Positions 2,390 through 29,135 of a stretch of 32,000 bases of DNA are shown piece after piece. The position numbers and the translations under genes are program-made. The stretch lies in the NCBI GenBank assembly GCA_964577555.1, contig CAZNZM010000002.1:3012-35011 (forward strand). The letters are read 5' to 3'. Position 1 is the first letter of the stretch; the number at the start of each line of letters is the position of its first letter. This DNA comes from an uncultured archaeon. GTDB taxonomy: Archaea; Iainarchaeota; Iainarchaeia; Iainarchaeales; Iainarchaeaceae. A model generated the notes under the pieces. That model saw only the letters and a list, made by a program, of their open reading frames with translations, ran no database searches and was not told the DNA's origin.

Positions 2390-2399
2390 GGTTTTTTTT

Positions 2400-4001: not shown

Positions 4002-4110
4002 TTAAAGCTTGCGTAATATTTTTTTAATTTTTTTGTGTCTGAAAGAAAATTTTAATATCGTGTATACGATAATTTTCAAGATTTTTTCTAATCAGTTTTT
4101 TGTAGAAAAT

Positions 4111-4830
4111 TTGTTTTTTTTGGTGAGCCGATTTTGTTTTTTTTTTCTTATTTTTTTTTGGTTTGTTTTTTTTTGTTTGTTTTTTTTTGGCGAGCCATTT
4201 TTTTGTCATTTTTCTTTTTTTTTTGAATTCTTTTTTTTTGTCAATTATTTTTTTAATTGGATTTTGTTTTTTTTTGTTTGTTTTTTTGTGAATTCTTTTT
4301 TTTTGTGAGCTGTTTTTTTTATTTTTTTTATTTTTTTTTGTTTTTTTGCAAGCTGTTTTTTTTATGGAATTTGTTTTTTTTTAGCAAGCCAATTTTTTTT
4401 GAATTATTTTTTTGATTTTTGTTTTTTTTTGGCGAGCCGATTTTGTTTTTTTTCTTATTTTTTTTGATTTTTGTTTTTTTTTGGCGAGCCATTTTTTTGT
4501 CATTTTTCTTTTTTTTTTTGAATTCTTTTTTTTTGTCAATTATTTTTTTAATTGGATTTTGTTTTTTTTGTTATTTTTTTTTGTGAATTTGTTTTTTTTT
4601 TCGTTTTAGTTATTTTTTTTTGTTTTTGTTGGTTTGGTTTTTTTTTGCAAGCTGTTTTTTTTTATGGAATTTGTTTTTTTTTAGCAAGCCAATTTTTTTT
4701 TGAATTATTTTTTTTGATTTTTTTTTTTTTTTGGCGAGCCGATTTTGTTTTTTTTTCTTATTTTTTTTTGGTTTGTTTTTTTTTGTTTGTTTTTTTTTGG
4801 CGAGCCATTTTTTTTGGGCAATTTTATTTT
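4111..4830 (+). repeat. Higher-order tandem array, unit ~302-309 bp, ~2.3 copies, built of T-tracts and GYRAGCY cores
   Basis: GG(T/C)GAGCCGATTTTG occurs at 4122, 4431 and 4733. GGCGAGCCATTTTTTTGTCATTTTTC occurs at 4189 and 4483, with a third copy at 4799 that diverges after the T-run. GCAAGCTG..ATGGAATTTG..TTAGCAAGCCAATTTTTTTTGAATTA occurs at 4348 and 4647. Copies differ mainly in T-run lengths. Confidence 0.9.
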
Positions 4831-4911
4831 TTTATTTTTTGTCAGACATTTTTTTGATATTTTTTTAATTGAGTTTGATTGAAATTCGTTTTTTTTTGTT
4901 TTAATATTCTC

Positions 4912-6174
4912 CTATTTTTTTTGTGGTTGGTTGTTGGTTGGGCATTTTGTTTCGTATTTCATTTCTTTACTTATTTTTTCAAATTCTTTTTCGTTTTTGC
5001 ATATTATTGGTTTTCCGTATTTTCCTCCACCGCCAGGAATATAAAGCACTAGTCCTTTTCTGAATGCTGTTATCATTTCTCCTATTTCTTTGTCTTCTTT
5101 CATTAGTTCTGCTTCTGGGGTTTCTGTCAGTATTTTTATTTCGTTTCCGAATTTTTCCACGAGTTCCATCCATTTTGCTTGGACTTTTTTTGTTTCGATT
5201 CCTTTTGAGTTTGTTGCTGTTTGGATTATTTCTGCAAGTGGCAGCATGTATTGGTATGGTGGCCTAAATTTTGGGTGTTTTTCTTGTTCCGTGTCTTTGA
5301 GCATCATTATTCTGTCCATTACTCCGCGTTTAATGTCTGTTTTGCATTTTATGCATTTCCATTTTAGTGTTTCCGCTTCTTTCAGCGAATATTTTTTGTG
5401 GCATTCTGAGCAAGCCGTGCAGTGGTATTTTCCTTCTTTTGGATTAAGTCCTGCGTTGAGTGTTATTAATTTGTCTTCGCGTTCGTTGAATGCTTTTTTT
5501 AGTGATTTGAAATCTGGTTTTTCCATTTTTATTTTTATGAATTCTCTGCCAATGCGGTGTGGCCAAGGTGAATGTGCGTCAGAACTTGTGAGGAATGCGT
5601 ATGAATGGTTTTCTGAAATCATGTCCGCCATGTTTGTGTCTGCGCTTAATCCCAATTCTATGAATTTGAGTTCTTTGTGCATGTTGCCGTATGCTGTTTT
5701 GAGTGAGTCGTAGAATGCATAAATGCCTGTGTATGGCGTGAATGAGTGTGCAGGTCCGAATATTCCACCAGAGTCGTGTATTTTTTCAGCCAATGCTTCT
5801 GGGGTTAGTTTGATGTATGGTCTGCCGCACATTATGCAGTCAAGGTTGCCGTGTGGCAAAAGTTTTTCTCTTAATTCTAAAGCGTTTTCAATTGCTGGGA
5901 GGTAGAAGAGGTGGTGTATTCCGTTTTTGTCTTCTGCTTCTCCGCCTATTATGTAATTGCAGTTTTGGTTTTTGTCTGCATAAACCCCGTTTTCTGTTTC
6001 TATTATGTTTTGTTTGACGTGTTTGAGCCATTCTTTGTGCAGTATGTCGCCTGTTGATAGCACTTCTATTCCTTTGAGTTTTGCTTGTTCGGATAAGATG
6101 GGTATTTCCATGTTTTTGCTTACCCCTCCAGCGTATTTTCCATGTATTTGCAGGTCTAAAACGAATTCGCGCAT
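4912..6174 (-). CDS. Endonuclease Q-like protein (PHP-domain phosphoesterase with Zn ribbon, COG1379-type)
   Basis: 420 aa. Blocks recalled from EndoQ are present: GPAHSFTPYT, ELGLSADTNMADMI, SDAHSPWPHRIGREF, NAGLNPKEGKYHCTACSEC...KWKCIKC, RGVMDRI, PLAEII, IPGGGGKYG. Confidence 0.75.
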   Translation of the reverse strand: MREFVLDLQIHGKYAGGVSKNMEIPILSEQAKLKGIEVLSTGDILHKEWLKHVKQNIIETENGVYADKNQNCNYIIGGEAEDKNGIHHLFYLPAIENALELREKLLPHGNLDCIMCGRPYIKLTPEALAEKIHDSGGIFGPAHSFTPYTGIYAFYDSLKTAYGNMHKELKFIELGLSADTNMADMISENHSYAFLTSSDAHSPWPHRIGREFIKIKMEKPDFKSLKKAFNEREDKLITLNAGLNPKEGKYHCTACSECHKKYSLKEAETLKWKCIKCKTDIKRGVMDRIMMLKDTEQEKHPKFRPPYQYMLPLAEIIQTATNSKGIETKKVQAKWMELVEKFGNEIKILTETPEAELMKEDKEIGEMITAFRKGLVLYIPGGGGKYGKPIICKNEKEFEKISKEMKYETKCPTNNQPQKK

Positions 6175-6197
6175 TGATGATTTTTTGCCAAGACATT

Positions 6198-6207
6198 GTT
6201 TTAAATT
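6198..6207. promoter_or_regulatory. Candidate shared TATA element GTTTTAAATT in the 68-bp divergent spacer
   Basis: It lies -24..-33 from the EndoQ ATG (6174, minus strand) and -36..-45 from the methyltransferase ATG (6243, plus strand). Near-palindromic A/T core. Confidence 0.3.
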
Positions 6208-6242
6208 GGTTGCAGGAGGGTTTTTTTGTTGTAGGCGTTTTT

Positions 6243-6869
6243 ATGTCAACTGAATTTGATTTAGGACATACAATGAGAATAACTGGCGAGTCTAAAAGTG
6301 AGTGGTTGAAAAGAAAGTTTGAGACAATGGTGTTGCCGCAGTTTAGGGTGGTTAGCCAAAATTCTGTGCTTGATGGAAAAAGAGTTCTTGAGTTTGGTTG
6401 TTTTGCAGGTCAATTGACTGATTATATTAACAAAAATTCTTCAGCTAAGTGTGTTGGGCTTGACGTAAAATTGCTTGAAAAGAGAAAGGGTTTGTATGAG
6501 TATGATGGGAAAAGAATTCCTTTCAATGATGGAGAATTTGATATTGTCACTTGTTTTGAAGTGATTGAACATGTTTTTAATCCTGTTGAAACTTTGGCTG
6601 AAATAAACAGGGTGTTGAAAAAGGGCGGGGTGCTTTATATTACTGCGCCGAACAAGTTTTGGGTTTCGTTGGGTTGGGGGCATAACAGTCTTGAAATGCA
6701 TTTGCGTCATATTTTTCGTAAAAATCCTGATTGTGTCAATCTTTTTTCTTGGTGGGAAATAACTAAACTGCTTGAAGATGCTGGTTTTAATTGGGTTTCT
6801 TTGCAAAAAAAGCCTTTTTGGTTGTCGCGCGGCTGGTTGCTTAAATGCGTGAAAATAAAAAATAAATAA
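6243..6869 (+). CDS. Class I SAM-dependent methyltransferase
   Basis: ORF 6081..6869 trimmed to the ATG at 6243 (MSTEFDL), because the upstream part overlaps the EndoQ start. Motifs: VLEFGCFAGQLT (degenerate motif I), FDIVTCFEVIEHV, LKKGGVLYITAPN. Confidence 0.7.
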   Translation: MSTEFDLGHTMRITGESKSEWLKRKFETMVLPQFRVVSQNSVLDGKRVLEFGCFAGQLTDYINKNSSAKCVGLDVKLLEKRKGLYEYDGKRIPFNDGEFDIVTCFEVIEHVFNPVETLAEINRVLKKGGVLYITAPNKFWVSLGWGHNSLEMHLRHIFRKNPDCVNLFSWWEITKLLEDAGFNWVSLQKKPFWLSRGWLLKCVKIKNK

Positions 6870-6923
6870 GCATTAATATTGTGTTGGTTGTATTTTTTTG
6901 GGTTTGGAAAAAAAGGTTTTTTT

Positions 6924-7571
6924 ATGGTAAAGTTTACTGAGACGCAAAGAAAAATAGCTGTGTTGCTTTTACATGCTTCTAAAACTGCTGATGACATTTC
7001 AAAGCAGTTGAATTTGCCTTTGATTGAGGTTAATGATGCTTTGAAGGATATGTTGAAGCTTAAGGTTGTGAAGCTTGATGGTTATCCGCCTAAGTATTCT
7101 TTGATGGAAAGTATTGTTGAAGCCGTGAAAAGGCGAAAGGAGTTGCAGGAAAAGGATCCTTTTGAATTGAGGTTGAAAGCCATTATTGAGTTTAAGGCTG
7201 TGGAAGAAAGTCTTCTTGAAAAAATGGTTTCCGAAATAGAGGCAAAGTTGCGCAAGGAAAAGAATTTTACTATTTATGAGATTTACCGGGCCAAGCCTAT
7301 TAAGGAAGGGACTCATTATAGCGCTTATTTGGAGGTTAATTTCAGTGTTGCTGATTTTTCAACTTTGGTTCAATTCATGTATTATTATGGGCCTGTTTCT
7401 GTTGAGGTCATAAAGCCGCAAAAAATAGTTATTTCAATGGACGATCTTCAGGATGGGCTTATGGACATGGCTGAAATGATTCAAGCTTATAATGCTTCCA
7501 TGCTTAAATACATGGAAAAGGAAGAGCTTGAAGAATTCGCAAAAAACCTTTACAAGCCAAGCCAGGATTGA
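6924..7571 (+). CDS. Hypothetical protein with N-terminal winged-helix-like domain
   Basis: ORF 6879..7571 trimmed to the ATG at 6924 (MVKFTETQRKIAVLLLHASKTADDISKQLNLPLIEVNDALKDMLKLKVVKL). The C-terminal domain is not recognised. Confidence 0.5.
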   Translation: MVKFTETQRKIAVLLLHASKTADDISKQLNLPLIEVNDALKDMLKLKVVKLDGYPPKYSLMESIVEAVKRRKELQEKDPFELRLKAIIEFKAVEESLLEKMVSEIEAKLRKEKNFTIYEIYRAKPIKEGTHYSAYLEVNFSVADFSTLVQFMYYYGPVSVEVIKPQKIVISMDDLQDGLMDMAEMIQAYNASMLKYMEKEELEEFAKNLYKPSQD

Positions 7572-7612
7572 TTTTTCGTTTTAAGTCGTAATTGTTATTA
7601 TAAATTGTTTGG

Positions 7613-7620
7613 TTATATAT
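7613..7620 (+). promoter_or_regulatory. Candidate distal TATA box TTATATAT upstream of the S-layer gene
   Basis: It is the same octamer as the candidate pyrH TATA (16913-16920). It would place a TSS near 7643 and give a ~210-nt structured leader. Confidence 0.25.
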
Positions 7621-7639
7621 TTTTTGAGTGTTTTTCAAT

Positions 7640-7737
7640 GGGTTTCCAACCTTATTTTCGTCGCTTGCCAAATACCTTTTCTTTAATAGCCATAAAAAAA
7701 AGGGTTTTTTTGGCGGTTTTTTATGGTTTGGAAATCC
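7640..7737 (+). other. Nested inverted repeat upstream of the S-layer gene
   Basis: GGGTTTCCAACC (7640-7651) pairs with GGTTTGGAAATCC (7725-7737): a 7-bp perfect core TTTCCAA/TTGGAAA plus terminal GG/CC. Inside it, A8-GGG-T7 (7694-7711) can form an A:U hairpin. Confidence 0.6.
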
Positions 7738-7751
7738 TAAAACGAAATGTA

Positions 7752-7759
7752 TTTAAATA
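7752..7759 (+). promoter_or_regulatory. Candidate proximal TATA box TTTAAATA for the S-layer gene
   Basis: Consensus-like archaeal TATA about 93 nt upstream of the ATG at 7852. It implies a ~70-nt leader carrying the SD. Confidence 0.35.
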
Positions 7760-7837
7760 AAGTGAGTCAAGATTATGAAAGTTTTCTTAGCCATAAGTGA
7801 CATGGTTAAGAATATGTATTTTCATTGGATAAAACGT

Positions 7838-7844
7838 GAGGTGA
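7838..7844 (+). promoter_or_regulatory. Shine-Dalgarno-like site GAGGTGA for the S-layer gene
   Basis: A perfect 7-nt purine-rich SD lies 7 nt upstream of the ATG at 7852. It is the strongest SD seen in the window. Confidence 0.6.
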
Positions 7845-7851
7845 AACGAAA

Positions 7852-10800
7852 ATGAAAGGATTCAACGTAAAGAAATTGGCTGCAATTGCAACCGGCGCAG
7901 CTTTGCTCGGTACTGCAGTGGCTCCAATTGTCTCAGCAATAACTGTTACTAAAGGAGACATCTATAATTCTGATGGTACTCCAAAAGTCAACATTGTTGT
8001 TGGATCTCAGGCCGCGGCTTCAGACGGTGTCTGGGCTGGAAATTTGGCGGCAAAGATAGCTGAAAAAGCTACTACAACAAAGCAAGTTAAGGTCTCGCTT
8101 GGTAGCGGTGCGGAAGGCAGCGAACCAACAGCTAATTTGGATCTTTCAGATCTTGTTGTTGACGTTACTATAGGCGGAAAAGTGACAATTAGCGGTCAAA
8201 GCAAGAGGTATTCAGAGTATATGAGCTCTGTTTCTAACTCTAAAGAAGTAAATTCAGCTCTTGACAATACAAACGATTCAAACGCTTTGACAGATTCGAC
8301 TTTGCCGTTCTTGTTCAACAACAGCTCTATGAGGGCTAAAGTTGACAATAATTCTTCAACCATTACGGTTCAAGAAAAAGTCGGGGTAAATGTTGACGCA
8401 AAGTTTTCAACAGACCAAGACTTGAAGGATTTGGTTGCCACAATAGGCACAAATGATATGACTTATCAAGTCAATTTTGGTGGCACCACCGGAGTGAATT
8501 TGGGAACAACCAACTTTACTGATGGGTCAGACGACGATGTTGAGGTGGCTTTCTTTGGAGAGAAATATAAGTTGAACGAAGCCGTCTTGACAGGACAAAA
8601 AAAGGTAAAATTAGTTAAATCCAGCGCAAAAACATCATTCAATGAAGGCGAGGTTATTGAAGGCCTTGTTGGTGATGGAATGTATGCTGGAAAAGATGTT
8701 AAAGTGAAAGTTGTTCAAGTCGTGTCAACAGGTCCATCGGCAAGTTCTTATCAAGCAACTTTCCAATTATTGGATAGCGAGGGCAATATAATTGATGTCC
8801 AAACAGTAGGCTCTGGAAACAATTTGAGGGATTACTTCAAGGACAGCAAAGACGATTATGCTCTCTCAAGCAATGTGTATATTGATACAATTGCAACAGG
8901 TGCAACATCAGGCGCTGGCTATGTTGAAGTAACCAAAGGCTCTGATACGCTTGAACTTTGGGATACTAAAATCTACCCATACAAGAGCGACTATACAGGG
9001 ACAAAACCTTATTCGGTTTCAATAGGCACTAATGATAACTATTTGAAGTCAATCAAAATTGTGAACACTGCTGAGAAGTGGGAAGAAACCAAAACAGGTT
9101 ATGACCTTGGTGCTCTTTACCCTACCAACTCTGGCCAGTCCTTGACCGGCAAAACAGGAACAACAGCAGTATTTGGGCAATCTTGGCCTGATGGAACCCT
9201 TGGAAAAGGTTACTTCAAGGTTGAGTTCCTCGGATTCCAAGGAAGCGAGGAAAGAACAACCACTATGATTGGCAAGTCAACTGAAAATCTGCCATCAGGT
9301 TCAACTGGTGGAATAACATTGTATGCCGACGACGACACCAAAATGGAAATTCCGTTCTACATCCAAGTTGATGATTCAAACGGCTCGTTTGAATTCATGC
9401 AAAAACCATATTCAGTGTTTTATGACTTTGGTTCAGGCGGAAAAACAGGGACTTACGACGTGAACGTTGTTGTCACATCAGGCGACTACGTGAACGGCAG
9501 ACAGTGGACGGTTTCAGCTGATACTATTGGCTCTGCTGACGTTAACATAACTGTTGGTTCTACCACCCACAGTAATAAACAAACAGGCTTTATTTTCCAA
9601 GTCGAAGATGTAAATTATATGATAGTAGATGCTAACACAGCGACTAACAAGACAACAATCGCTGTTGACACCGCTGTTGAGTTGTTCTATGGTAATGTGT
9701 CTGATGACGCGAGTTCAAAGAATGCGGCTACTGCTGTATTCAACACAACCAGTGGAACATATCAAACAAAAGGGGCTTATGGTAGAATCCTTTTGTCAAA
9801 CAATGCAGCGTTTGACATAAATGGAACTACTGTTGGTCTTTACGGCACCGACAACCAAAGAAAGATTTATTACGTGCCAAAGTATAACGGCAACGACTTT
9901 TACTTGTTGCTTGAGGCACAGCAATTAAACAAAGACAAGTCAGGGCTACAAAATGGCCATAACTTGTACTTCTTGGGTACAAGCTTGCCGGTAGATACTT
10001 CATATACTGAAGTAAAAGGCGTATCCGCCAACTATTATTTAGGTAACATTGGTGGTGACACAACTTTAGGCTCTACTGCAAGGCAATACGGCTATTATGT
10101 GCCTAAAACAACTGACTTCAATTCAGCAGCTGCATACTCTGCAAGCGACGCATACTTCGTTGCAGAATTCAGATACATTAGCGCTATAACAAGCGATTCA
10201 AACACAGACATATACATCGATACTTCGAAGGGAGCACCTCTCGGTACATTCCCGATACAGAACTTGACAGGATACTCTAGCGCAGTAAGTTATAATTCTG
10301 ACGCTATTGTATTAAAGCCTGGTTCCGATGCGGCTTACTTCCAATCGATGTATACGGATTCAGGCTCTAAATTTTCAGTGACCAACGACGACGTCACTTT
10401 GAGTTCGCCTCAAAGAGCGGAAAAAGTTGAAGTTGTTGTCTACGGCACTGAATTGCAGAGAACTGTTGAAGGCGAAAAAGTCAGTTTGAAAGAAGGTGAA
10501 ACAAAAGAATTGCCTTCAGGCACAAAGGTGACTTTCAGCGGAGTCAAGGGAGGAGCTTGTAAAGTAAGCGCAGGCGAACCTGGACAACCAGGTATTTGTA
10601 AAGCGGAACCATCTTCTTACGTTGTTCCGGCTCCAATTAGAGGAAACCTCGTATTCCTTGACACGGAAAGCCCGGCAGGAACCAACATAATTGTTGGTGG
10701 TTGGGCAGTCAACAAAATGGCTGAAAAAACCAAGTCAAAGCTCGTAGCAGCAGGCGACATGGTTGCCGAAGTTGACGCAGCAAGCGGCGACATATACGTT

Positions 10801-10872
10801 GCAGGCTATACTGCTGAAGACACCGGAAGGGCAGTAAAAGAACTCATAGACGCAATAGATGCATTGCAATGA
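7852..10872 (+). CDS. S-layer (surface layer) protein precursor
   Basis: 1006 aa. Signal peptide MKGFNVKKLAAIATGAALLGTAVAPIVSA. The mature protein is T/S/N/G/D/V-rich, acidic and nearly Cys-free. The C-terminal block NIIVGGWAVNKMAEKT...IYVAGYTAEDTGRAVKELIDAI resembles the conserved end of methanogen-type S-layer proteins. Strong SD and a double-hairpin terminator flank it. Confidence 0.75.
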   Translation: MKGFNVKKLAAIATGAALLGTAVAPIVSAITVTKGDIYNSDGTPKVNIVVGSQAAASDGVWAGNLAAKIAEKATTTKQVKVSLGSGAEGSEPTANLDLSDLVVDVTIGGKVTISGQSKRYSEYMSSVSNSKEVNSALDNTNDSNALTDSTLPFLFNNSSMRAKVDNNSSTITVQEKVGVNVDAKFSTDQDLKDLVATIGTNDMTYQVNFGGTTGVNLGTTNFTDGSDDDVEVAFFGEKYKLNEAVLTGQKKVKLVKSSAKTSFNEGEVIEGLVGDGMYAGKDVKVKVVQVVSTGPSASSYQATFQLLDSEGNIIDVQTVGSGNNLRDYFKDSKDDYALSSNVYIDTIATGATSGAGYVEVTKGSDTLELWDTKIYPYKSDYTGTKPYSVSIGTNDNYLKSIKIVNTAEKWEETKTGYDLGALYPTNSGQSLTGKTGTTAVFGQSWPDGTLGKGYFKVEFLGFQGSEERTTTMIGKSTENLPSGSTGGITLYADDDTKMEIPFYIQVDDSNGSFEFMQKPYSVFYDFGSGGKTGTYDVNVVVTSGDYVNGRQWTVSADTIGSADVNITVGSTTHSNKQTGFIFQVEDVNYMIVDANTATNKTTIAVDTAVELFYGNVSDDASSKNAATAVFNTTSGTYQTKGAYGRILLSNNAAFDINGTTVGLYGTDNQRKIYYVPKYNGNDFYLLLEAQQLNKDKSGLQNGHNLYFLGTSLPVDTSYTEVKGVSANYYLGNIGGDTTLGSTARQYGYYVPKTTDFNSAAAYSASDAYFVAEFRYISAITSDSNTDIYIDTSKGAPLGTFPIQNLTGYSSAVSYNSDAIVLKPGSDAAYFQSMYTDSGSKFSVTNDDVTLSSPQRAEKVEVVVYGTELQRTVEGEKVSLKEGETKELPSGTKVTFSGVKGGACKVSAGEPGQPGICKAEPSSYVVPAPIRGNLVFLDTESPAGTNIIVGGWAVNKMAEKTKSKLVAAGDMVAEVDAASGDIYVAGYTAEDTGRAVKELIDAIDALQ

Positions 10873-10945
10873 AGCTGTTTTGCTTCATTGTAACTTATTT
10901 TTTTGGTTGCTCCTGAAAAGGAGCAATCAACTCTTTGTTTTTTTG
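10867..10945 (+). terminator. Double hairpin plus T-tracts downstream of the S-layer gene
   Basis: Hairpin 1: CAATGAAGC (10867-10875) / GCTTCATTG (10882-10890), a 9-bp perfect stem with a 6-nt loop that includes the stop codon. Hairpin 2: TTGCTCC (10907-10913) / GGAGCAA (10920-10926). T7 runs follow each hairpin. Confidence 0.6.
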
Positions 10946-10959
10946 TGTTGGATTAAACC

Positions 10960-11545
10960 CTTGTTTTTCTTAATTTTTTGCAATTTTTTTTGAAATTTGT
11001 TTTATTTTTTTTGCTAGCCGTTTTTTTGTTTATTGTTTTTTTATTTTGAAAACTTGTTTTTTTTTGCAAGCTTTTTTTATCGTTTTTTTGGCATTTTTTT
11101 GTTTTTTTTTGAAGCCGATTTTTTTGTATTTTATTTTTTGTTTGGTTTTGTTTTTGTGTGCCTAATTTTTTTTAGCCATTTATTTTTTTGTCTTTTTGCG
11201 AGTCGTTTTTTTGGTCTATTTATTTTTTTATTTTTTTTACCAGGCATTTTTTTTGAAATTTGTTTTATTTTTTTTGTTTATTATTTTTTTGTTTTTTTAG
11301 TCAGTTTTTTTTGGCGTTTTTCTTTGTTTTTTTTTGCGAGCCGTTTTTTTTATTTTGCTTTTTTGTTGTTTGTTTTTTTTGGTGAGCCATTTTTTTGTCT
11401 TGTTTTTGCGAGCCAATTTTTTTTAGGCGTTTTTTTTGTTTTTTTAGCACAGTTTTTTTAGTTTTGATTTTTGTTTTTAGCCATTTTTTTGGGTTTTTAA
11501 GCATTTTTTTTAAGGTGTTTTTTTTTGCGGGTTTTCTTTTTTTAA
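10960..11545 (+). repeat. T-tract/GYRAGCY intergenic array (degenerate, ~15 cores)
   Basis: Cores: GCTAGCCG 11013, GCAAGCT 11066, GAAGCCGA 11111, TAGCCA 11173, GCGAGTCG 11198, GCGAGCCG 11336, GGTGAGCCA 11381, GCGAGCCAA 11408, TAGCCA 11478. Each is flanked by T6-T9 runs. There is also an internal 31-nt perfect repeat (10983-11013 = 11246-11276). Confidence 0.85.
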
Positions 11546-11568
11546 GAGTTTTGGGGTGTTATTGTTTG

Positions 11569-12186: not shown

Positions 12187-12197
12187 GGCATTAAAAC

Positions 12198-14128: not shown

Positions 14129-14137
14129 CTTGTTTTT

Positions 14138-15412: not shown

Positions 15413-15431
15413 AAAAAATCATTTTTAATTT

Positions 15432-16646: not shown

Positions 16647-16769
16647 ATTGTTACCTTTTTATGAAAATCAGTGATTTTTCTAAGAATTATTGGTTTGCAT
16701 CATTTTAATTCATTTATTGCATAAAGCTTAAATACCCAGGACGCTGTTGTCGGCGTGTTTCATGTTTTC

Positions 16770-16905
16770 ATGTTTTTTTTGTTTTGGCCCGCTTTTTTTT
16801 GGGTTGTTGTTTGTTTTTTATATTTTTTTTGCAACTCATTTTTTTTTGAGTTTGTTTTTTGCAAGCCAAGTTTTTTTGAATTTATTTGTTTTTTCTTGGC
16901 TTTTA
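16770..16905 (+). repeat. T-tract/GYRAGCY intergenic array
   Basis: Cores GGCCCGC 16786, GCAACTCA 16831 and GCAAGCCAAGTTTTTTTGAATTTA 16861 (compare 4384 and 4684). It lies between divergent gene starts (aRF1 minus, pyrH plus). Confidence 0.75.
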
Positions 16906-16912
16906 GTAAAAG

Positions 16913-16920: not shown

Positions 16921-16945
16921 TCTTTATTCTTAATTTTTAGGAATT

Positions 16946-17854: not shown

Positions 17855-17872
17855 TTTTTTGGAAAGTTTTTT

Positions 17873-18883: not shown

Positions 18884-18959
18884 AGTATTGTTTGTGTGTT
18901 AGAAAGTTGTTAATACTTTATGTATTTGGCGATTTTTTTTGTTTGATGTGTTTATGTTT

Positions 18960-19045
18960 TATTAATAAATCAGTTGTTTTTTTGTTGTTTGTTTTTGTCG
19001 AGCCATTTTTTGAGTCAATTTGTTTTTTTTTTGAGTCATTTTTTT
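18960..19045 (+). repeat. T-tract/GYRAGCY intergenic array
   Basis: GTCGAGCCATTTTTTGAGTCAATTTG..TTGAGTCATTTTTTTG. The uL16 stop codon (TCA on the plus strand, 19036-19038) lies inside the last core. Confidence 0.7.
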
Positions 19046-19749: not shown

Positions 19750-19879
19750 ATTATAATCACTCAAAATAAGTTTTTTTTATGCCTAAAAGTTACTTATTTT
19801 TCCTTAGAATGCTTTAAAAAGCTTCTCTCGGCGCTTTTGCTTGTTCTTTTTGCTTTCGCTTTTGCATCTTGTTCTTTGT

Positions 19880-20093
19880 CATTTTTTTTGTTTTGGCGAG
19901 CCGTCTTTGGCAATCATATTTTTAATTTAAATTTTTTTGTCTTTGTTGGTTTGGTTTTTGTGTGTTTTTTTTGTTGTTTTGTGAGATGTTTTTTGGTATT
20001 TTTTTTATTTTTCGTGTGTTTTTTTGTTTTTGTGTGGCAATTTTTTTTAGTTAATTTTGTTTGTATTTTGGCTTGGTTTTGCAAGTTGTTTTT
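19880..20093 (+). repeat. T-tract/GYRAGCY intergenic array
   Basis: Cores GGCGAGCCG 19895, GTGAGATG 19981 and GCAAGTTG 20081. It lies between two minus-strand genes. Confidence 0.75.
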
Positions 20094-20591: not shown

Positions 20592-20685
20592 AGTATAAAA
20601 TGGTGTTCTTTTATTTTATAATTTTGGTGTCGTTTTTTTGTGTCGATAGTTTTATTTAGTTTAAAAACAGATATATTGTTTATTT

Positions 20686-21465: not shown

Positions 21466-21474
21466 TTTTTGACT

Positions 21475-22107: not shown

Positions 22108-22142
22108 TTAATCAAAATTATTGTAAATGTTTTATTTTAATG

Positions 22143-22210
22143 TGTTGTTTTTTTTGTGAGATATTTTTTTGGTATTTGATTTTTTTTAGCAAGCCAATTT
22201 TTTTGTCAGG
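22143..22210 (+). repeat. T-tract/GYRAGCY intergenic array
   Basis: TGTTGTTTTTTTTGTGAGATATTTTTTTGGTATTT (a copy of 19972-20003) followed by TTAGCAAGCCAATTTTTTTG. The last three FTR1 codons and its stop are read from the core. Confidence 0.75.
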
Positions 22211-23100
22211 TTTTTGTTTCGTTTTTTTTTTAGGTTTTGCAAGTAGTGTTTGTAGATTAAAATTATGCCGATTATTAGGACAATTGTTTGTGTTATTGTT
22301 GTTTCTGCTGTTTGGTATATTCCGAGTTCTTTTATTTTTGGAATTTGAATTATTGTTTCGTTTATTATTTTTGCTTCTTGTAGTTCGTGTATTCCTTTTC
22401 CAGCAAATTTGAATGATAGTATAAAGAGAATTATGCTTGTAATTGAGAAAATTGTTTTGGTTGGGAGTTTGTTTTCTATTTTGTTAATTAAAAAATACGC
22501 AATTGAAAGGAAAATTATTCCTAATATGAAACCTGCTATTATGTTTGGTTGGTTTGTGGTTATTGCAAGTGCTTTGTAGAATAATACTGTTTCAAATCCT
22601 TCTCGGTAAACTGCTAAAAAAGCTATTATGGTGAGTGTTTTTTCGCTGTTTTTGTTAATAGCGTTTTTTGTTTGTTTTTCTATGTGATTAACCCAAATTT
22701 TTTTGTCTATTTTTCCTAAAAACCAGTTTGTGGTGTATAACATTATTATTGCTGCAAGGATTGTTGTTATTCCTTCTATTATTTCTTTTTGGCTTTTGTT
22801 GCTTTCTAGTGTTTCATTAAGGGCTATTCCTGTGATAATGCTTGTGATTATTCCTAGTGCGACTCCGTAGTATATGTATTTTTTCTTTTTTTCATTTCCC
22901 GTTTTTGAAAGGTAAGCTATGATAGTTGATATTATGATAATTGTTTCAAGTCCTTCTCTTGCAATTATTGAAAATGATTCGGCTAAAATCATTGTGCTGT
23001 TTTCTTGGTTGTTATTTTTTTGTGCGTAATTGCTTATTGTTATTTGCGAAATTAATATTATTGATATTGCAAGTGTTGCGAAAATTGTTGTTTTTTTCAT
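22186..23100 (-). CDS. FTR1/EfeU-family high-affinity iron permease
   Basis: 304 aa, multi-TM. Two REXXE motifs are present: REGLETIIIIS and REGFETVLFY. Confidence 0.8.
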   Translation of the reverse strand: MKKTTIFATLAISIILISQITISNYAQKNNNQENSTMILAESFSIIAREGLETIIIISTIIAYLSKTGNEKKKKYIYYGVALGIITSIITGIALNETLESNKSQKEIIEGITTILAAIIMLYTTNWFLGKIDKKIWVNHIEKQTKNAINKNSEKTLTIIAFLAVYREGFETVLFYKALAITTNQPNIIAGFILGIIFLSIAYFLINKIENKLPTKTIFSITSIILFILSFKFAGKGIHELQEAKIINETIIQIPKIKELGIYQTAETTITQTIVLIIGIILIYKHYLQNLKKKRNKNLTKKLAC

Positions 23101-23135
23101 GGATTTATTCTTTGGCGGGTGTTTTTAATTTAAAT

Positions 23136-25805
23136 CTATTTTTGTGTTAATATTTGTTGATTGTTTTCTGTGAGAAATATTTTGGTTGTTTCCATTAGTA
23201 TGAATCCGATAATTGAGATTGTTATTATTTCCATCCAATTATTTAATGTGATTGGCGTTGTTTCAAAAATTTGTTGTAGTGGTGTTAGATAGATTATTGC
23301 TATTTGTAATATTATTGATGAAGTGATGCCAATTACAAGCCATTTGTTTTCCGTTATTTTTGAAAATCCTTTGAATGGTTGGATTGATCTGCTTCCTATT
23401 GCCGCAAACATTTGGAATATTACAAGGGTTGTGAATGCTATTGTTTTGGCTTTTTGTTCCCCTTCCCAAGCATGTTTTAGAAAAAGTAGAAAACTTCCTA
23501 TCCCCATTGTAATGCCGAATATTATTATTGCGAGTAGCATTTTTCCTTGCAGTGGTTGTTCTTCTTTTTTTATTGGTGGGTTTTTCATTACTTCTTGGCC
23601 TGATTTTTCAAATCCTAATCCTATTGCTGGCAGTCCGTCTGTGAGAAGGTTCATTACAAGTATTTGCAATGGGTTTAATGGTAATGCCGTATTTTTTATC
23701 AAGGCTGCTATTACTATTGTTATTTCTCCAAGGTTGCATGATAAAAGGTATTTTGTGGAGTTCATTATTTTGTAGTATGTGTTTCTGCCTTCTTTTATTC
23801 CGGTTATTATTGTTGTGAAATTGTCGTCTGTTATGGTTGTGGCTGAGACTTCTTTTGCTATGTCTGTTCCTGTTATGCCCATTGATATTCCGACGTCTGC
23901 TTTTTTGAGGGCTGGTGCATCGTTTACGCCGTCTCCGGTCATTATGACTACTTCGCCTTTTTTTTTGAGTGCTTTTATTATTTTGAGTTTTTGTATTGGC
24001 AATGCGCGTGAAATTATTGTTACTTTGTCTATTATTTTTTGCAGGTTGTTTTCGTCAATTTTTTCAAGTTCTTCTCCTGTTAGTACTATGTCTTCTTTTT
24101 TGTAAATTCCTATTTTTTCAGCTATTGCTTTTGCTGTTTCTGAGTGGTCTCCGGTTATCATCATTATTTTTATTCCTGCGTTTTTTGCATTTTCAATTGA
24201 TTCTTTTACTTCTTCTCTTGGAGGGTCAATCATTCCTATTAAACCAACAAAAATCAGGTCTTTTTCTATTTCTTCTATTGTGTATTTTTCTTTCATATTT
24301 TCTTTGTATGCAAAGCCAAGGACTCTTAGGGCGTTTTGCGCGAATTTTGAGTTGGTTTGCAGTATTTTTTTTCTGTCTTCTTCGGTGATTTTTCTTTTTT
24401 TTCCGTTTTTTTCCAAAATTGTTGTGCATTTTTTTAATAGAATGTCTGGGGCTCCTTTTGTGAGGGCTTGTTTTTTTCCTTTGTCGCTTATTATTGTTGT
24501 CATTAGTTTTCTTTCTGGATCAAATGGCAATTCTTTGATTATTTTGATGTTTTTGTCTTCGGTTTTGTATCCTGTTTTTTTTGCAAATACTAGGAGAGCG
24601 GCTTCTGTAGGGTCTCCAATTACTTTCCATTTGTCGTTTTCTTTGAATATTCTTGAATTGTTGCAGAAGGTTGATATTTGAGCCAGCATTTGTATTGCAG
24701 GATTTTTTTTGTCTTTTGTGATTAGTTCTCCTTTTGGTTCGTATCCTGAGCCAGTTATTTCGATTTCTTGGTTTTCAATAAAGATTTTTGTGACTGTCAT
24801 TTCGTTTTTTGTTATTGTGCCTGTTTTGTCAGAGCAGATTATTGTTGCTTGTCCTAAGTTTTGTATTGCGTCAAGTTTTCTGACAATCATTTTGTTTTTT
24901 GCTAGTTCGTTTGCTCCAAGGGAAAGGCTTATTGTTACTACTGCTGGAAGGGAATTTGGTACTGCCGCTACTGCAAGGCTTATTGCAAAGACGAGCATTT
25001 CGTCCGGTTTTAATTTGCTTTGTATTATGCCTAATAAAAAAACTATTCCTATTATTGCTATTACTAATAAGCCTATTTGTTTTGACATTTTTTCAAATTT
25101 TTCTTCTAACGCGGTTTTTTTGATTTCTTGATGCATTATTGTTTCTGCTATTTTTCCAAATTCCGTGTTTTTGCCTGTTGCTGTTGTTATTGCGTTTCCT
25201 TTGCCATAAGTTACTATTGTTCCTGAAAAAGCCATGTTTTCTTGGTCTGCAATAGGGCAGTTTTCTGGCAGTATTTCAGTTATTTTTTTTGAGGGCACTG
25301 ATTCTCCGGTCAGACTTGATTCTTCAATTTGGAGGCTTGTTTCTTCAAAAATTCTGCAATCTGCTGGCACTATGTCTCCTGCTTCAAGAAGTATTATGTC
25401 GCCTGGCACTATTTCTTTTGCGGGTATTTTTTTTTGTTTTCCTTCTCTGATGACTTTTGCTATTGGTGCAAAAAGCCTTTCCAGTTTTTCCATGGATTTT
25501 TCAGCTTTGTATTCTTGGAAAAACCCCAACAAGCCTGAAAGTATTATTATTGTGATTATTGCAGTTGCTTCAAGATAGTCTCCTAATATTATTGAAAAGC
25601 ATGTCGCCAAAAAAAGTAGTAATTGCAGAAAGCCGGTGAATTGCGATGTAAGTATTGTCAGCCATTCTCGTTTTTTTGTTTTTGGGATTTCGTTCAAGCC
25701 GTATTTGTTTATTCTTTTTTTTGCTTCTTCTTCGGAAAGCCCGTTTTTTGAAGATTGGAAGTATTCAAATATTTTGTCAATGCTTGTTGAATGCGGATTT
25801 TTCAT
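23136..25805 (-). CDS. P-type cation-transporting ATPase (P2-type, SERCA/PMR-like architecture)
   Basis: 889 aa. Motifs: TGES, CSDKTGTITKNEM, MITGDH, MTGDGVNDAPALKKADVGISMG. N-terminal cation-ATPase domain GLSEEEAKKRINKYGLNEIP. The TM4 motif reads VPNSLPAV. Confidence 0.9.
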   Translation of the reverse strand: MKNPHSTSIDKIFEYFQSSKNGLSEEEAKKRINKYGLNEIPKTKKREWLTILTSQFTGFLQLLLFLATCFSIILGDYLEATAIITIIILSGLLGFFQEYKAEKSMEKLERLFAPIAKVIREGKQKKIPAKEIVPGDIILLEAGDIVPADCRIFEETSLQIEESSLTGESVPSKKITEILPENCPIADQENMAFSGTIVTYGKGNAITTATGKNTEFGKIAETIMHQEIKKTALEEKFEKMSKQIGLLVIAIIGIVFLLGIIQSKLKPDEMLVFAISLAVAAVPNSLPAVVTISLSLGANELAKNKMIVRKLDAIQNLGQATIICSDKTGTITKNEMTVTKIFIENQEIEITGSGYEPKGELITKDKKNPAIQMLAQISTFCNNSRIFKENDKWKVIGDPTEAALLVFAKKTGYKTEDKNIKIIKELPFDPERKLMTTIISDKGKKQALTKGAPDILLKKCTTILEKNGKKRKITEEDRKKILQTNSKFAQNALRVLGFAYKENMKEKYTIEEIEKDLIFVGLIGMIDPPREEVKESIENAKNAGIKIMMITGDHSETAKAIAEKIGIYKKEDIVLTGEELEKIDENNLQKIIDKVTIISRALPIQKLKIIKALKKKGEVVIMTGDGVNDAPALKKADVGISMGITGTDIAKEVSATTITDDNFTTIITGIKEGRNTYYKIMNSTKYLLSCNLGEITIVIAALIKNTALPLNPLQILVMNLLTDGLPAIGLGFEKSGQEVMKNPPIKKEEQPLQGKMLLAIIIFGITMGIGSFLLFLKHAWEGEQKAKTIAFTTLVIFQMFAAIGSRSIQPFKGFSKITENKWLVIGITSSIILQIAIIYLTPLQQIFETTPITLNNWMEIITISIIGFILMETTKIFLTENNQQILTQK

Positions 25806-25848
25806 TTAACCTAAATAAAAGAAGTTTTGTTAATTAAATATTTCTATT

Positions 25849-26583
25849 TCAAAACGAAAAAATGAATATTAATAGATTGTCTGTGATGTGTGCTATGATT
25901 GACGGTGCAAGGCTTTTTTGTTTGTAACAAATCCAATTAATGAAATATAATGAGCCATACATAATACCTCCTCTAAATGCAGATAATTGATTTATTGGCG
26001 GGTGAATTATTGCAAATAAGAATGCTTGGTCAATTATAATAAGAATGATTAGTAATAAGTGTAATAAGTTTTTTTTGCCGATTTTGATAAAAATGTCTGT
26101 TATTTTTGCGTTGGTCGGTATTTGTTGAATTGTTTCTTCAATTCTTGTTGTTTTATTAATTATTGCAAAACCAATGACTCCGAATATGATCCCTCTGAAT
26201 ATTATTTCTTCGAATATTGGCATCAAGAAAACAACAGTTATTATAATTCCCTGCAAGTTATTTGTTGGCAATTTTATTATTGGATGCTGGAGAATACAGT
26301 ATATTGATATGATGCAATTTATCAATAAATAAATTATCATTCCGGGGTGAAATTTAAATTCTAAAGGTTCGATTATTGTTTTTATTGTTTTTTTGTTTTT
26401 CTGTAAAAATTCTTTTATAGGGTATTTTCCTTTATCTTTATAAAATTCTGTCGCATCAATAATTTTTTTATGAATGATTTTCTTGGTTGTTGGAAAATTG
26501 GCAATTATGTAAATAATTACTATTATAAGCAAAGATATTAAGTCTGGTTTTGGAATGTCTATGTAAATGTAATTTTCAAACAT
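25849..26583 (-). CDS. CPBP-family intramembrane metalloprotease (CAAX protease/Abi type)
   Basis: ORF 25849..26658 trimmed to the ATG at 26583 (MFENYIY), because the first 25 codons overlap the tRNA. Motifs: PIFEEIIFRG, FLFAIIHP, IIAHITDN. Confidence 0.8.
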   Translation of the reverse strand: MFENYIYIDIPKPDLISLLIIVIIYIIANFPTTKKIIHKKIIDATEFYKDKGKYPIKEFLQKNKKTIKTIIEPLEFKFHPGMIIYLLINCIISIYCILQHPIIKLPTNNLQGIIITVVFLMPIFEEIIFRGIIFGVIGFAIINKTTRIEETIQQIPTNAKITDIFIKIGKKNLLHLLLIILIIIDQAFLFAIIHPPINQLSAFRGGIMYGSLYFINWICYKQKSLAPSIIAHITDNLLIFIFSF

Positions 26584-26607
26584 TTTTTTATCACTATTTT
26601 TGGCCGA

Positions 26608-26678
26608 AGCTGGGAGAGGGAGTCGAACCCCCCTAGCCCGCTCTGCAGGCGGGTACATAGCCGCTCTGACATCCCAGC
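26608..26678 (-). tRNA. tRNA-Cys (anticodon GCA), no encoded CCA, weak D-stem
   Basis: Hand fold of the reverse complement: acceptor GCTGGGA/TCCCAGC (7 bp), anticodon stem CCCGC/GCGGG with loop CTGCAGA, T-arm GGGGG-TTCGACT-CCCTC, discriminator T73 (a tRNA-Cys identity element). D-stem TCAG/ATGT gives only 2 Watson-Crick pairs. Confidence 0.7.
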
Positions 26679-26749
26679 TGTTGTTTTTTTTGTTTTAAGA
26701 AGAAGTGTTGAGAAAGGATTAAAAGCAGTCGTGTGTTTTTGTGTTTTGA

Positions 26750-26850
26750 TTTTTTTGTTTTTTTTAGCCATTTTAGGTTTTTTTTTATTTCGTTTTGTTT
26801 TTGGTTATATTTTTTTGCCGAGTTTTTTTGAATTTTACTTTTTTTAGTTT
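26750..26850 (+). repeat. T-tract/GYRAGCY intergenic array (short, degenerate)
   Basis: TTTTTAGCCATTTTAGG (26761) and TTTTTTGCCGAGTTTTTTTG (26811), located between the H+-PPase 3' end and the tRNA. Confidence 0.55.
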
Positions 26851-28890
26851 TTATAAAAAGAGTGGTGCTAGTACAAGTGTGATTGTTGCTAATAGTTTTA
26901 TTAGTACGTGTAGTGATGGTCCCGCGGTGTCTTTGAATGGGTCTCCTATTGTGTCTCCGATTACTGCTGCTTTGTGCGTTTCGCTTCCTTTTCCGCCTTC
27001 ATACCCTTCTTCTATGAATTTTTTTGCGTTGTCCCATGCTCCGCCTGCGTTGTTGAGGAATGTTGCGAATAGTATTCCTGTTATTGTTCCTACCATTAGC
27101 ATTGCTGCTACGGCTTCGTATTTTAATGCAAGTCCTATTACTAATGGGAATATTACTGCTAGTGCTCCTGGTATTATCATGTTTTTTAGTGCTCCTTGTG
27201 TTGTTATGTCCACGCATTTTGCGTAGTCTGGTTTTTTCTTGCCGTTCATTATGTCTTTGTCTTTGAATTGTCTTCTTACTTCTTCAATTATGTATGTTGC
27301 GGTTTTGCTTACTCCTCTGATTGCTCTTGATGTGAATAGAAGTACTAGTAGTGCTCCCATTGCTGCTCCTACGAATACTTCTACTTTGGCTATGTTGACT
27401 ACTTCAAATGTGTTTTTCGATAGGTGTGTTATTTCGCTCATGTATGCTGAAAATAGGAGGAATGCTGCAAGTGATGCGCTTCCTATGGCGTATCCTTTTG
27501 TGAGTGCTTTTGTCGTGTTGCCTACTGAGTCTAGTTTGTCAAGTCTTGTTCTTGTTTCTTTTTTTTCTCCTGAGAATTCTGCTATTCCTGCTGCGTTGTC
27601 TGTTATTGGTCCGAACATGTCCATTGCTAGTACGTATGTTGCTGTCATTAGCATTCCTATTGTTGCTATTGCTGTGCCGAATAATCCGCCGTTTTCGATG
27701 CCTGTTTGTTCGCCAAAGTTGTATGCCATTAGTAGTGCTATTGAAATTGTTATGAGTGTTGGGCCTGTTGATTCTAATGCTAATGCAAATCCTGATAGGA
27801 AGTTTGTTGCGGCTCCTGTTCTTGATCCTTCAACTATTCTTTTTACTGGTCTGTGTTTGTGTTCGGTGTAGTGTTCTGTTATGAAGACGAATATTATTGA
27901 AGTGGCTATTCCTATCATGCCTGCTCCAAAAAACCATATGTTGTTGAATAACCAGTCTGTTGCGAAGTAAAGGAAAATAGAGGATAGTATTGCTGTTAGC
28001 CAGTATCCTCTGTTCATTGCTTCCATTGGGCTTTCTTTTTCGTTGAGTTTGACATACATTATTCCTGCTATTGATGCTATTATTCCTAATGCACTGGCGA
28101 GTAGCGGGAATACTACTCCGTTTTGTCCGAATATTGGGAATAGTGCTACTCCAAGTATCATTGCTCCTATGTTTTCTCCTGCTGTGCTTTCAAATAAGTC
28201 TGCTCCTCTTCCTGCGCAATCGCCTACGTTGTCTCCAACCAAATCTGCTATTACTGCTGGGTTTCTTGGGTCGTCTTCAGGTATGTTTGCTTCTACTTTT
28301 CCGACTAAGTCTGCTCCTACGTCTGCCGCTTTTGTGTATATTCCTCCGCCTAGTTGTGCAAATAGCGCCACAAATGATGCTCCAAATGCATATCCAACTA
28401 TTATGAAGGGTGTTTGTTCCGGGTTAGATCCAAATAGAATGTATGTTATTGAAACGCCAAGCAATGACATTGAAACTAGTAAAATTCCTGCTACTGCGCC
28501 TCCTTTGAATGCTATGTCAAATGCTGTGGCGAGTGATGTTTTTGCTCCTGCTGCTGTTCTTGAATTGGTGTTGACCGCCATTAGCATTGAAAGTATGCCT
28601 GCCAGTGCGCTGAGTGTTGCTCCTATTAAGAATGAAATTGATGTTGTCAGGGATTTTTCATGGGAGAAGAATTGGAATATTATGTAAAGTGCTGTTGCCA
28701 CTATTATTGCAAAAATTGCTATTGTTTTTGTTTGTCTTTTCATGTATGCGGCTGCTCCTTCCCTTATGTATTCGGCTACTTCAATCATTTTTTCTGTGCC
28801 TTCTTCTTTTTTGAAGACGTAAATTGCCAGCAATGCCGAAATAACTAAAGTGATTATGCTTATTATGAAAACAATTAGTATTGGATCCAT
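26851..28890 (-). CDS. hppA: Membrane-bound proton-translocating pyrophosphatase (H+-PPase)
   Basis: 679 aa. Motifs: GGGIYTKAADVGADLVGKVE, DNVGDCAGRGADLFES, AGGAWDNAKK, GDTIGDPFKDTAGPSL, GNTTKALTKG. GAGG lies 8 nt upstream (plus-strand CCTC at 28900-28903). Confidence 0.95.
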   Translation of the reverse strand: MDPILIVFIISIITLVISALLAIYVFKKEEGTEKMIEVAEYIREGAAAYMKRQTKTIAIFAIIVATALYIIFQFFSHEKSLTTSISFLIGATLSALAGILSMLMAVNTNSRTAAGAKTSLATAFDIAFKGGAVAGILLVSMSLLGVSITYILFGSNPEQTPFIIVGYAFGASFVALFAQLGGGIYTKAADVGADLVGKVEANIPEDDPRNPAVIADLVGDNVGDCAGRGADLFESTAGENIGAMILGVALFPIFGQNGVVFPLLASALGIIASIAGIMYVKLNEKESPMEAMNRGYWLTAILSSIFLYFATDWLFNNIWFFGAGMIGIATSIIFVFITEHYTEHKHRPVKRIVEGSRTGAATNFLSGFALALESTGPTLITISIALLMAYNFGEQTGIENGGLFGTAIATIGMLMTATYVLAMDMFGPITDNAAGIAEFSGEKKETRTRLDKLDSVGNTTKALTKGYAIGSASLAAFLLFSAYMSEITHLSKNTFEVVNIAKVEVFVGAAMGALLVLLFTSRAIRGVSKTATYIIEEVRRQFKDKDIMNGKKKPDYAKCVDITTQGALKNMIIPGALAVIFPLVIGLALKYEAVAAMLMVGTITGILFATFLNNAGGAWDNAKKFIEEGYEGGKGSETHKAAVIGDTIGDPFKDTAGPSLHVLIKLLATITLVLAPLFL

Positions 28891-28984
28891 TAGGAATTCC
28901 TCGTTTTTCTTTTGTTTTGGCTTTGTATAAAGTAATTTGGCTAACCCTTATAAAACCTTCTTTTTTGGCCGTTGCGTTACTATT

Positions 28985-29075
28985 GTTTTATGTTTTTTGC
29001 AAAGTTTTTTTTCGTTTTTTTTTGTTAGAAAACTTTTTTTTATTTCAACTCATTTAAAAAAATAAGAAATTTTTT
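28985..29075 (+). repeat. T-tract-rich spacer with degenerate cores
   Basis: TTTTTTGCAAAGTTTTTTTTCGTTTTTTTTTGTTAGAAAACTTTTTTTTTA, lying between divergent gene starts. Cores are weaker than elsewhere. Confidence 0.4.
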
Positions 29076-29135
29076 TTGTCTTTTTTTTGGCTCGTTAATG
29101 TGCTTGTTTTAATATTTTGTTGTTTTTATTTTGTT

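Follow-up and report, generated by a model that had tools for sequence, protein, structure and literature searches.

The GC clusters of yeast mitochondrial DNA are 30–50 bp long, palindromic, present in both orientations and variable between strains, and they are suspected of being both selfish and recombinogenic. Archaeal transcription terminators are represented by runs of 4–7 U, and a greater number of tracts leads to more termination (PMC8716108); terminators composed of consecutive oligo-dT runs are known as well (PMC2253867). In the CPR bacterium Ch65 and its relatives, one strand shows a chromosome-wide G/C disparity (15% vs 30%) without a corresponding imbalance of A and T (PMC7143001), and a complete Diapherotrites genome features a bacterial-type origin-to-terminus GC skew (PMC5905446). 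The subject of the present analysis is a family of intergenic repeats in a 32-kb stretch of archaeal DNA (the window). It makes up the first 32 kb of the 149-kb contig Ga0394875_0000113 from a JGI metagenome, and NCBI lists a contig of 152 kb. The repeats, described in an earlier note made from the sequence alone, consist of T-tracts punctuated by a seven-letter core, GYRAGCY, and occupy eight spacers of the window. Additionally, a 6.9-kb extension to position 38890 (contig L009) was recovered through the H+-pyrophosphatase gene, giving 38.9 kb in total.

The best reading of this family is tandem-amplified oligo-T spacer DNA, new and lineage-specific, in which GCGAGCC is a hitchhiking signature. 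It is moderately probable that the arrays are fast-turnover, minisatellite-like repeats of a single lineage which arose from oligo-T gene-end spacers, and that their polarity is a by-product of strand-asymmetric mutation. This asymmetry, which is independent of gene orientation and absent from the earlier note, is the main anomaly of the segment and more remarkable than the arrays themselves.

Repeat word, unit grammar and gene ends

The spacers, 3.8 kb in all, contain 18 forward copies of GYRAGCY and one reverse copy, compared with expectations of 0.60 and 0.40 from first-order Markov simulations (2000 runs, maximum 4). The composite pattern T6-D-GYRAGCY-RW-T4 has 14 matches, 14/14 on the plus strand, versus 0.00 in 100 shuffles. 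The spacer counts thus lie far above both the Markov and the shuffle expectations, and the copies form a non-chance, strand-locked family as the earlier note had claimed. Taken by itself, GYRAGCY shows no more than a mild enrichment when the entire window is counted (29 vs 19.1 ± 4.6), and in coding DNA it does not behave as a polar word, with 6 forward and 4 reverse copies. The exact word GCGAGCC is present in 12 copies in the spacers of the window and the extension, none of them on the reverse strand; among its 140 letter permutations, the spacers hold only the true word and its one-base shift.

The 40 units recognised share a common grammar, namely a run of T7-9 that may be followed by G or A, the core, one of the linkers A, G, AA, AAG and GA, and finally T6-9 followed by G, with the T-tracts of all units on the plus strand. 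Counting runs of seven letters or longer, the spacers contain 118 of T and 2 of A, in agreement with the one-strand location of the T-tracts reported before. Runs of T7, T8 and T9 number 67, 62 and 36, whereas a geometric expectation gives 21.6, 13.7 and 8.6, and short runs are in deficit. Lengths thus peak sharply at 7–9, with a ceiling near 10, as could result from copied units, from limits on slippage or from selection. The spacing between T-tracts is mostly ~14–19 nt.

The core coordinates given in the earlier note are exact without exception, namely 4190, 4432, 4484, 4734, 4800, 11336, 11408 and 19896 for GCGAGCC, 4123 and 11382 for GTGAGCC, 4384, 4684, 16861 and 22189 for GCAAGCC, and 4348, 4647 and 11066 for GCAAGCT. 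The same is true of the variant cores (11013, 11111, 11198, 18997). A further copy, GTGAGCT at 4305, had been overlooked, and the spacer that holds the copy at 16861 begins at 16647 instead of 16747. The observation that C is concentrated in the core is only partly right, as the share of spacer C's inside cores is just 21% over all spacers and about half in the largest array (hand count of the listed cores). Among the one-mismatch variants of GCGAGCC, 10/12 are transitions (G3>A, C2>T, C6>T), and the degeneracy of GYRAGCY accordingly looks like the decay of a single master word under the observed mutation pressure. The core positions, moreover, are not conserved between the window and its sister species, so that the suggestion of a maintained core found no support in a pattern that is expected from decay under C>T pressure.

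The eight spacers together comprise 2781 bp, or 8.7% of the window, close to the earlier estimate of about 8%. Their tandem character is evident from Tandem Repeats Finder (TRF), which detects periods of 14–66 nt and of 295 nt (2.1 copies, 88%) at 4098-4833 and periods of ~11–54 nt in the other arrays. Several familiar identities can be set aside. The units fold at -1.2 to -5.1 kcal/mol (z +0.1 to -1.0 vs shuffles); since this is no better than shuffled sequences, they are neither like repetitive extragenic palindromic (REP) elements or miniature inverted-repeat transposable elements (MITEs) nor terminators of the bacterial hairpin type. Helically phased bent DNA was also rejected, as the T-tract spacings contain no 10–11 nt series. 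Within the arrays, Rfam gave nothing at E <= 1, and no Pfam domain was matched and no coding potential found in their low-complexity open reading frames (ORFs). The pattern TTTTTTTDGYRAGCCRWTTTT had at least 120 single matches in a metagenome-wide scan, in unrelated contigs of all compositions, and no further contig of this lineage was among the matches listed; the same pattern gave 7 singletons in viral contigs, which do not point to a viral or mobile origin. One unit alone is therefore not diagnostic: unrelated contigs, both metagenomic and viral, also hold single units by chance.

With respect to gene ends, plus-strand units that end at a spacer with T5+ runs have such a run starting 0–39 nt past the stop codon, as expected of U-tract terminators. 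When the gene that each array follows is considered, 6/8 arrays follow no plus-strand gene, and the simple account of terminators placed behind plus-strand genes is insufficient for this reason, as the earlier note had argued. Four of the five largest arrays of the window and extension do follow plus-strand genes. Read in the plus sense, the arrays would at minimum be hugely redundant terminators. Minus-strand genes, in their own sense, have A-runs downstream, and T5+ runs are missing or limited to one or two distant ones. Between 14138 and 38234, the ends of minus-strand genes have almost no downstream T5+ run in their own sense. The near absence of T-runs behind these genes indicates that the bias has overridden any selection for such signals.

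Strand asymmetry and turnover relative to the sister species

The plus strand of the window contains 42.2% T, 22.7% A, 20.9% G and 14.2% C, and its cumulative GC skew rises almost monotonically without a sign switch, as it does up to 38890 in L009. At four-fold degenerate sites, plus-strand genes have T 0.555 and A 0.181, and minus-strand genes, in gene sense, have A 0.655 and T 0.109; per-gene counts thus give a neutral T:A ratio of ~5:1 on the plus strand for genes of either orientation. A replication-type skew behaves in this way, with more G than C and more T than A on one strand for both gene directions. The asymmetry even reaches amino-acid usage, which differs between plus- and minus-strand genes for Val (10.1% vs 3.5%), Ile (5.8% vs 12.5%) and Ser (8.3% vs 4.4%). 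No 100-bp window reaches 50% A in the 38.9 kb, all of which is of one polarity with no skew switch seen. The pattern looks like the leading-strand sequence of one replichore, at a magnitude resembling that of mitochondria. A comparable skew for an archaeon was not reported in the literature searched, the nearest case being the G/C disparity of CPR bacteria (PMC7143001). Two genes, that of the S-layer protein (7852-10872; four-fold A 0.34, T 0.37) and PAC2 (3231-4001; T 0.41), are far less skewed than their neighbours, which may reflect codon selection or recent exchange.

A graded series of relatives was recovered through EndoQ and Dph2 homologues. The closest, a sister species with 93–95% protein identity, differs at 30% of the shared four-fold sites, possesses the same skew (four-fold T 0.51–0.56 on the same strand) and uses the same repeat vocabulary, for example T-run GCAAGCC AAG T8 and GGCGAGCC G T8, but in different arrays. 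Relatives at 82%, 71% and 54% identity, with GC contents of 0.48, 0.48 and 0.30, have weak or ordinary skew and no arrays. Furthermore, a scan of GTDB genomes with EndoQ returned only 54%-identity relatives lacking both skew and arrays. Skew and arrays therefore co-occur: both are found in the window and the sister species, and neither strong skew nor arrays in the 82/71/54% relatives. In the 1596 four-fold sites shared with the sister, T in the window faces C in the sister 114 times and the reverse 49 times; T faces G 63 times, against 36 in the opposite direction. For the complementary changes on the plus strand, A/G is balanced at 36 and 34, and the A/C counts of 33 and 18 give the window no net increase in A. 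These counts indicate that it is specifically the plus strand on which the lineage gains C>T and G>T, and both changes would be typical of damage to exposed single-stranded DNA.

The clearest case of array turnover is the spacer between PAC2 and EndoQ, which measures 910 bp here, 107 bp in the sister species (93%) and 15 bp in the 71% relative. The 107 bp of the sister correspond to the left edge of the window's spacer, with a small palindrome, and to its right edge, with one GCAGAGCC unit in between (T6 GCAGAGCC G T8 GGCA T7). Conserved edges around a single unit imply that ~780 bp were amplified in place, and among the options raised in the earlier note, a selfish expanding minisatellite fits best for this reason. 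The palindrome (tatcgt-N4-acgata, ~4044-4080) lies within 'gaaagaaaattttaatatcgtgtatacgataatttt'; apart from the last 20 nt of the spacer, this region is its sole conserved part. In the aRF1/UMP-kinase spacer, the units lie in 24-nt and ~52-nt insertions relative to the sister, bounded by T-runs, and both promoter-proximal parts are conserved. Upstream of Dph2, the unit GTCGAGCC has GCAAGCC-G-T7-GTCAATTTTG-T8 at the matching place in the sister, and the spacer varies in copy number between relatives, with lengths of 152, 206 and 829 bp. The 829-bp version of the sister holds an array of ~400 bp, on another contig and joined to different genes.

The S-layer spacer also carries a long array in the sister, and only its two ends align convincingly. 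Orthologous S-layer arrays score no higher than non-orthologous ones (147–188 vs 72–293). Core columns are 26–48% identical between the species versus 35–43% for other non-T/T columns, in a low-complexity alignment that is ambiguous, as different settings pair different cores. The aligned letters thus offer no evidence of extra conservation of the cores, which is not proof of neutrality.

Some further observations concern the sister contigs. Positions 1-9171 of one of them, L136 (L44e, SMC, Lon, P1, L10, L1), have a much weaker asymmetry and ordinary spacers, with arrays flanking both sides; another sample with an identical Dph2 protein has L10e at the L136 junction. Either the region was rearranged or the contig was joined chimerically at an array. 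A small lysine-rich ORF of 62 aa (MAARKKNEKKGKK...) adjoins an array in the sister (L136 9407-9595), and a basic peptide similar to it is encoded upstream of PriS in the 71% relative (L012 ~9570-9640).

Features of the window and reliability of the assembly

The locations and contents of the arrays are collected in Table 1. The hairpin listed there folds at -18.3 kcal/mol (z = -5.6, with 0/200 shuffles folding as well) and is kept in the sister species with one loop change, marking the conserved proximal end of the S-layer spacer. The core at 22189 overlaps the stop and last codons of the FTR1-like gene at 22186-23100.

Table 1. Arrays and associated features of the window and its extension
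Feature	Position	Strand	Context and content
Largest array	4002..4911	+	Convergent spacer, PAC2(+) / EndoQ(-); amplified part ~4100-4880; 11 GYRAGCY cores and 57 runs of T5 or more; higher-order repeat of 295 bp, ~2.1 copies, 88% matches (TRF)
S-layer array	10873..11568	+	Downstream of S-layer gene, upstream of 205-aa gene; cores and variants at 11013, 11066, 11111, 11198, 11336, 11382, 11408; AGCC words at 11173, 11478
GC-rich hairpin	10903..10928	+	Directly 3' of S-layer stop codon; outside the repeat family; ggttgctcctgaaaaggagcaatc
aRF1/UMP-kinase units	16770..16905	+	Two 30-nt units (GCAACTC; GCAAGCC at 16861), TRF period 30, between divergent promoters
L10e(-)/Dph2(-) spacer	18884..19035	+	Unit GTCGAGCC-A-T6-GAGTCAATTTG-T10 at 18997
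Spacer between two minus-strand genes	19765..20093	+	T-rich; GCGAGCC at 19896; decayed words GTGAGAT, GCAAGTT
Short T-tract spacer	22108..22201	+	GCAAGCC at 22189, overlapping the end of the FTR1-like gene (minus)
H+-PPase(-)/tRNA-Cys(-) T-tract spacer	26680..26850	+	Degenerate words only: AGCCA ~26765, GCCGAG ~26817
Weak member	28891..29135	+	Divergent spacer; T-rich; without exact core
Three extension arrays (L009)	32203-32699, 34559-34876, 38235-38667		Cores on the same strand as those of the window

Judging from its genes, the window derives from the chromosome of a DPANN archaeon close to Ca. Diapherotrites. The affiliation rests on the closest named homologues, which are Candidatus Diapherotrites metagenome-assembled genomes at 65–70% identity. 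Pfam matches and precomputed annotations identify the archaeal housekeeping genes of primase PriS, GINS, S27e, eIF2-alpha, PAC2 and endonuclease Q (EndoQ). Further genes encode the S-layer protein, aRF1, TruD, UMP kinase, Dph2, L10e, a P-type ATPase and the H+-pyrophosphatase (H+-PPase), while the look-up of a 217-aa HAD protein gave no record. The only Rfam match reaching the gathering score is a single tRNA-Cys (26606-26679, minus strand). It overlaps the start of the longest ORF of an Rce1-like gene (25849-26658), and the true start of that gene must therefore lie further downstream. Upstream of PriS, a G/T-rich tandem repeat of ~60 bp occupies window positions 1-172, and four independent contigs all begin no more than ~300 bp from it, which marks the repeat as an assembly break point; beyond it, the sister species has PriL and two PCNA genes. 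The spacer 7572-7851 upstream of the S-layer gene has no T-tract array, is near-identical in the sister species and is recognisable in the 71% relative. Its sequence points to a conserved strong promoter with a 5' leader (tatttaaata ... gtgaggtgaaacgaaa).

The sequence is well supported by independent assemblies, namely two JGI samples for the left side and the JGI contig plus Logan SRR12686701 contigs for the rest, which match with essentially 100% identity. They differ at six positions in all, every one of them inside 4583-4757 of the 910-bp array. That the arrays are artefacts of assembling low-complexity reads is extremely improbable. Three contigs from other samples do end within the 910-bp array, and its exact copy number is uncertain because of these breaks. 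However, this array is read through by two assemblies from different samples with three differences, every other array is identical in the independent assemblies covering it, and the same kind of array is present in the sister species. Identical sequence in independent assemblies shows that the arrays are not artefacts.

Origin of the arrays and comparison with known systems

The following series of steps could account for the arrays. It would start from a plus strand that is T-rich, A-poor and higher in G than in C at neutral sites for any gene direction, and it would be driven by the net flux of C>T and G>T seen on this strand against the sister, the complementary changes having no such gain. 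At a T:A ratio of ~5:1, long A-runs would be lost and AT-rich spacers would be turned into T-runs, with slippage shaping their length of T7–9. Units consisting of a T-run, a short word and another T-run would then be amplified in place by slippage or unequal recombination, as is shown for two spacers, in one of which a single ancestral unit became a tract of ~780 bp. Since the T-runs all lie on one strand, homology-driven copying would proceed in direct orientation only; GCGAGCC would be carried along strand-locked with the T-runs and would subsequently decay by transitions to GTGAGCC, GCAAGCC and GCAAGCT. Following established knowledge of archaeal termination, the product would supply very redundant U-tract terminators in the plus sense and could not act so in the minus sense. 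The strand lock of the T-tracts is thus due to the skewed composition of the plus strand, and that of the core would be due to its being copied with T-runs of one strand. Among the possible roles named in the earlier note was a polar chromosome-architecture or replication-associated signal. The strand lock is no evidence for a dedicated signal of this kind on a strand that is T-rich and A-poor at neutral sites regardless of gene direction, because A-runs cannot persist there and T-run homology aligns direct copies only.

Several points weigh against this origin by amplification under biased mutation. Composition leaves unexplained that one 7-mer, GCGAGCC, is shared by at least ten separate spacers in two species that are 30% apart at four-fold sites. 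Either a putative ongoing exchange of copies among loci or selection on the word would be required. The peak of T-run lengths at 7–9 with its ceiling near 10 could stem from selection instead of slippage. The test that revealed no extra conservation is weak, because low-complexity alignments are ambiguous. For arrays between minus-strand genes and divergent promoters, a terminator origin is not obvious. Additionally, as the readable 38.9 kb contains no skew switch, the link to replication and the existence of mirror-image arrays remain predictions.

The first of these points would be met if GCGAGCC were an orientation-independent protein-binding site, for example a roadblock-type terminator or boundary, which compensates for the missing oligo-U terminators of minus-strand genes. 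The word is extremely over-represented and common to two species, minus-strand genes lack downstream T5+ runs, and most of their non-operonic ends have a core or close variant ~20–110 nt from the stop, as exemplified by EndoQ (4800), L10e (18997), FTR1 (22189), the CoA-ligase gene (32627) and Top6A (34848). Nevertheless, such a role is unlikely, as the positions are not conserved between the species, the variants differ by transitions in a decay-like manner, one 910-bp spacer has 11 copies where the sister has one degenerate copy, some gene ends have none, and no binding protein is known. A broader scenario, speculative and improbable, extends the same idea: mitochondrial-grade asymmetric mutation, with C>T and G>T on the strand exposed as single-stranded DNA and perhaps with unidirectional or single-origin replication, would strip one strand of its oligo-U terminators, and the GCGAGCC units would be a compensating, orientation-independent roadblock terminator, boundary or lagging-strand priming site instead of junk.

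Selection might also act on the tracts instead of the core. T7-9 tracts could be selected poly(dA:dT) which stiffens DNA and excludes chromatin proteins, the skew only picking the T strand, and their lengths are indeed far from the geometric expectation, with short runs in deficit and tracts in every type of spacer, including those between divergent promoters. This is improbable, because copied units may by themselves produce the length peak, the largest arrays lie at convergent gene ends far from promoters, helical phasing is absent with spacings mostly of ~14–19 nt, and array size differs 8-fold at the same site between sister species. It is more doubtful still that the arrays serve replication as a functional signal on the template of the lagging strand, for instance as a fork-polar element or as preferred start sites of primase. 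Pyrimidine templates are favoured by archaeo-eukaryotic primases, and the T-tracts are on the strand that, by its excess of G over C and T over A, would template lagging-strand synthesis; yet the arrays are limited to spacers, are very uneven in size and are absent from relatives with the same replication genes, and the core has no strand bias inside genes.

The interest of the repeat family itself is probably only local, and the skew that it revealed matters more. Across at least 39 kb of an archaeal chromosome, neutral sites on one strand have a T:A ratio of ~5:1 for either gene direction, a bias that shifts protein composition by gene orientation and strips one strand of its oligo-T terminators. 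If confirmed genome-wide, this would be a natural experiment on archaeal termination without U-tracts, on the replication mode and DNA-repair losses of ultra-small archaea, and on how mutation bias alone creates strand-polar 'elements' that look designed. It is likewise a caution for motif searches, in which orientation bias has to be judged against local strand composition. Arrays and cores formed in this way are predicted to switch strand where the skew switches.

The closest known systems each match the arrays in part. Like archaeal oligo-dT and U-tract terminators (PMC2253867; PMC8716108), they have T-runs past stop codons, several in a row, with no need of a hairpin; they differ in having up to 57 tracts in 910 bp, in lying on the wrong strand for every minus-strand gene, and in the recurrent 7-mer between tracts, features that are not described for terminators. 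With minisatellites, they share head-to-tail copies with nested periods of 14–17, ~30, 52–65 and 295 nt, a copy number that differs between close relatives, and polymorphism confined to the array, whereas their vocabulary is dispersed over at least ten spacers and its orientation is locked to one chromosome strand. REP elements, bacterial interspersed mosaic elements (BIMEs) and MITEs are also short intergenic repeats, often clustered at the 3' ends of genes, but they form a stable palindrome or have terminal inverted repeats, where the present units fold like shuffles. KOPS, Chi and other architecture-imparting words are likewise oriented with respect to one replication strand, but they occur throughout genes, where their bias persists, in contrast to the 6 forward and 4 reverse coding copies found here and a strand-biased word confined to T-tract arrays. 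The GC clusters of yeast mitochondria similarly are short, dispersed, GC-containing words punctuating extremely AT-rich spacers, although the present word has 7 nt, is non-palindromic and occurs in a single orientation. Lastly, the skew resembles that of Ch65 (PMC7143001) in that one base of a pair is enriched regardless of gene direction in a single lineage of ultra-small uncultured prokaryotes, while here it affects mainly T and A (42% vs 23%), in an archaeon and over a segment of at least 39 kb, and it is accompanied by repeat arrays of a kind not reported for Ch65.

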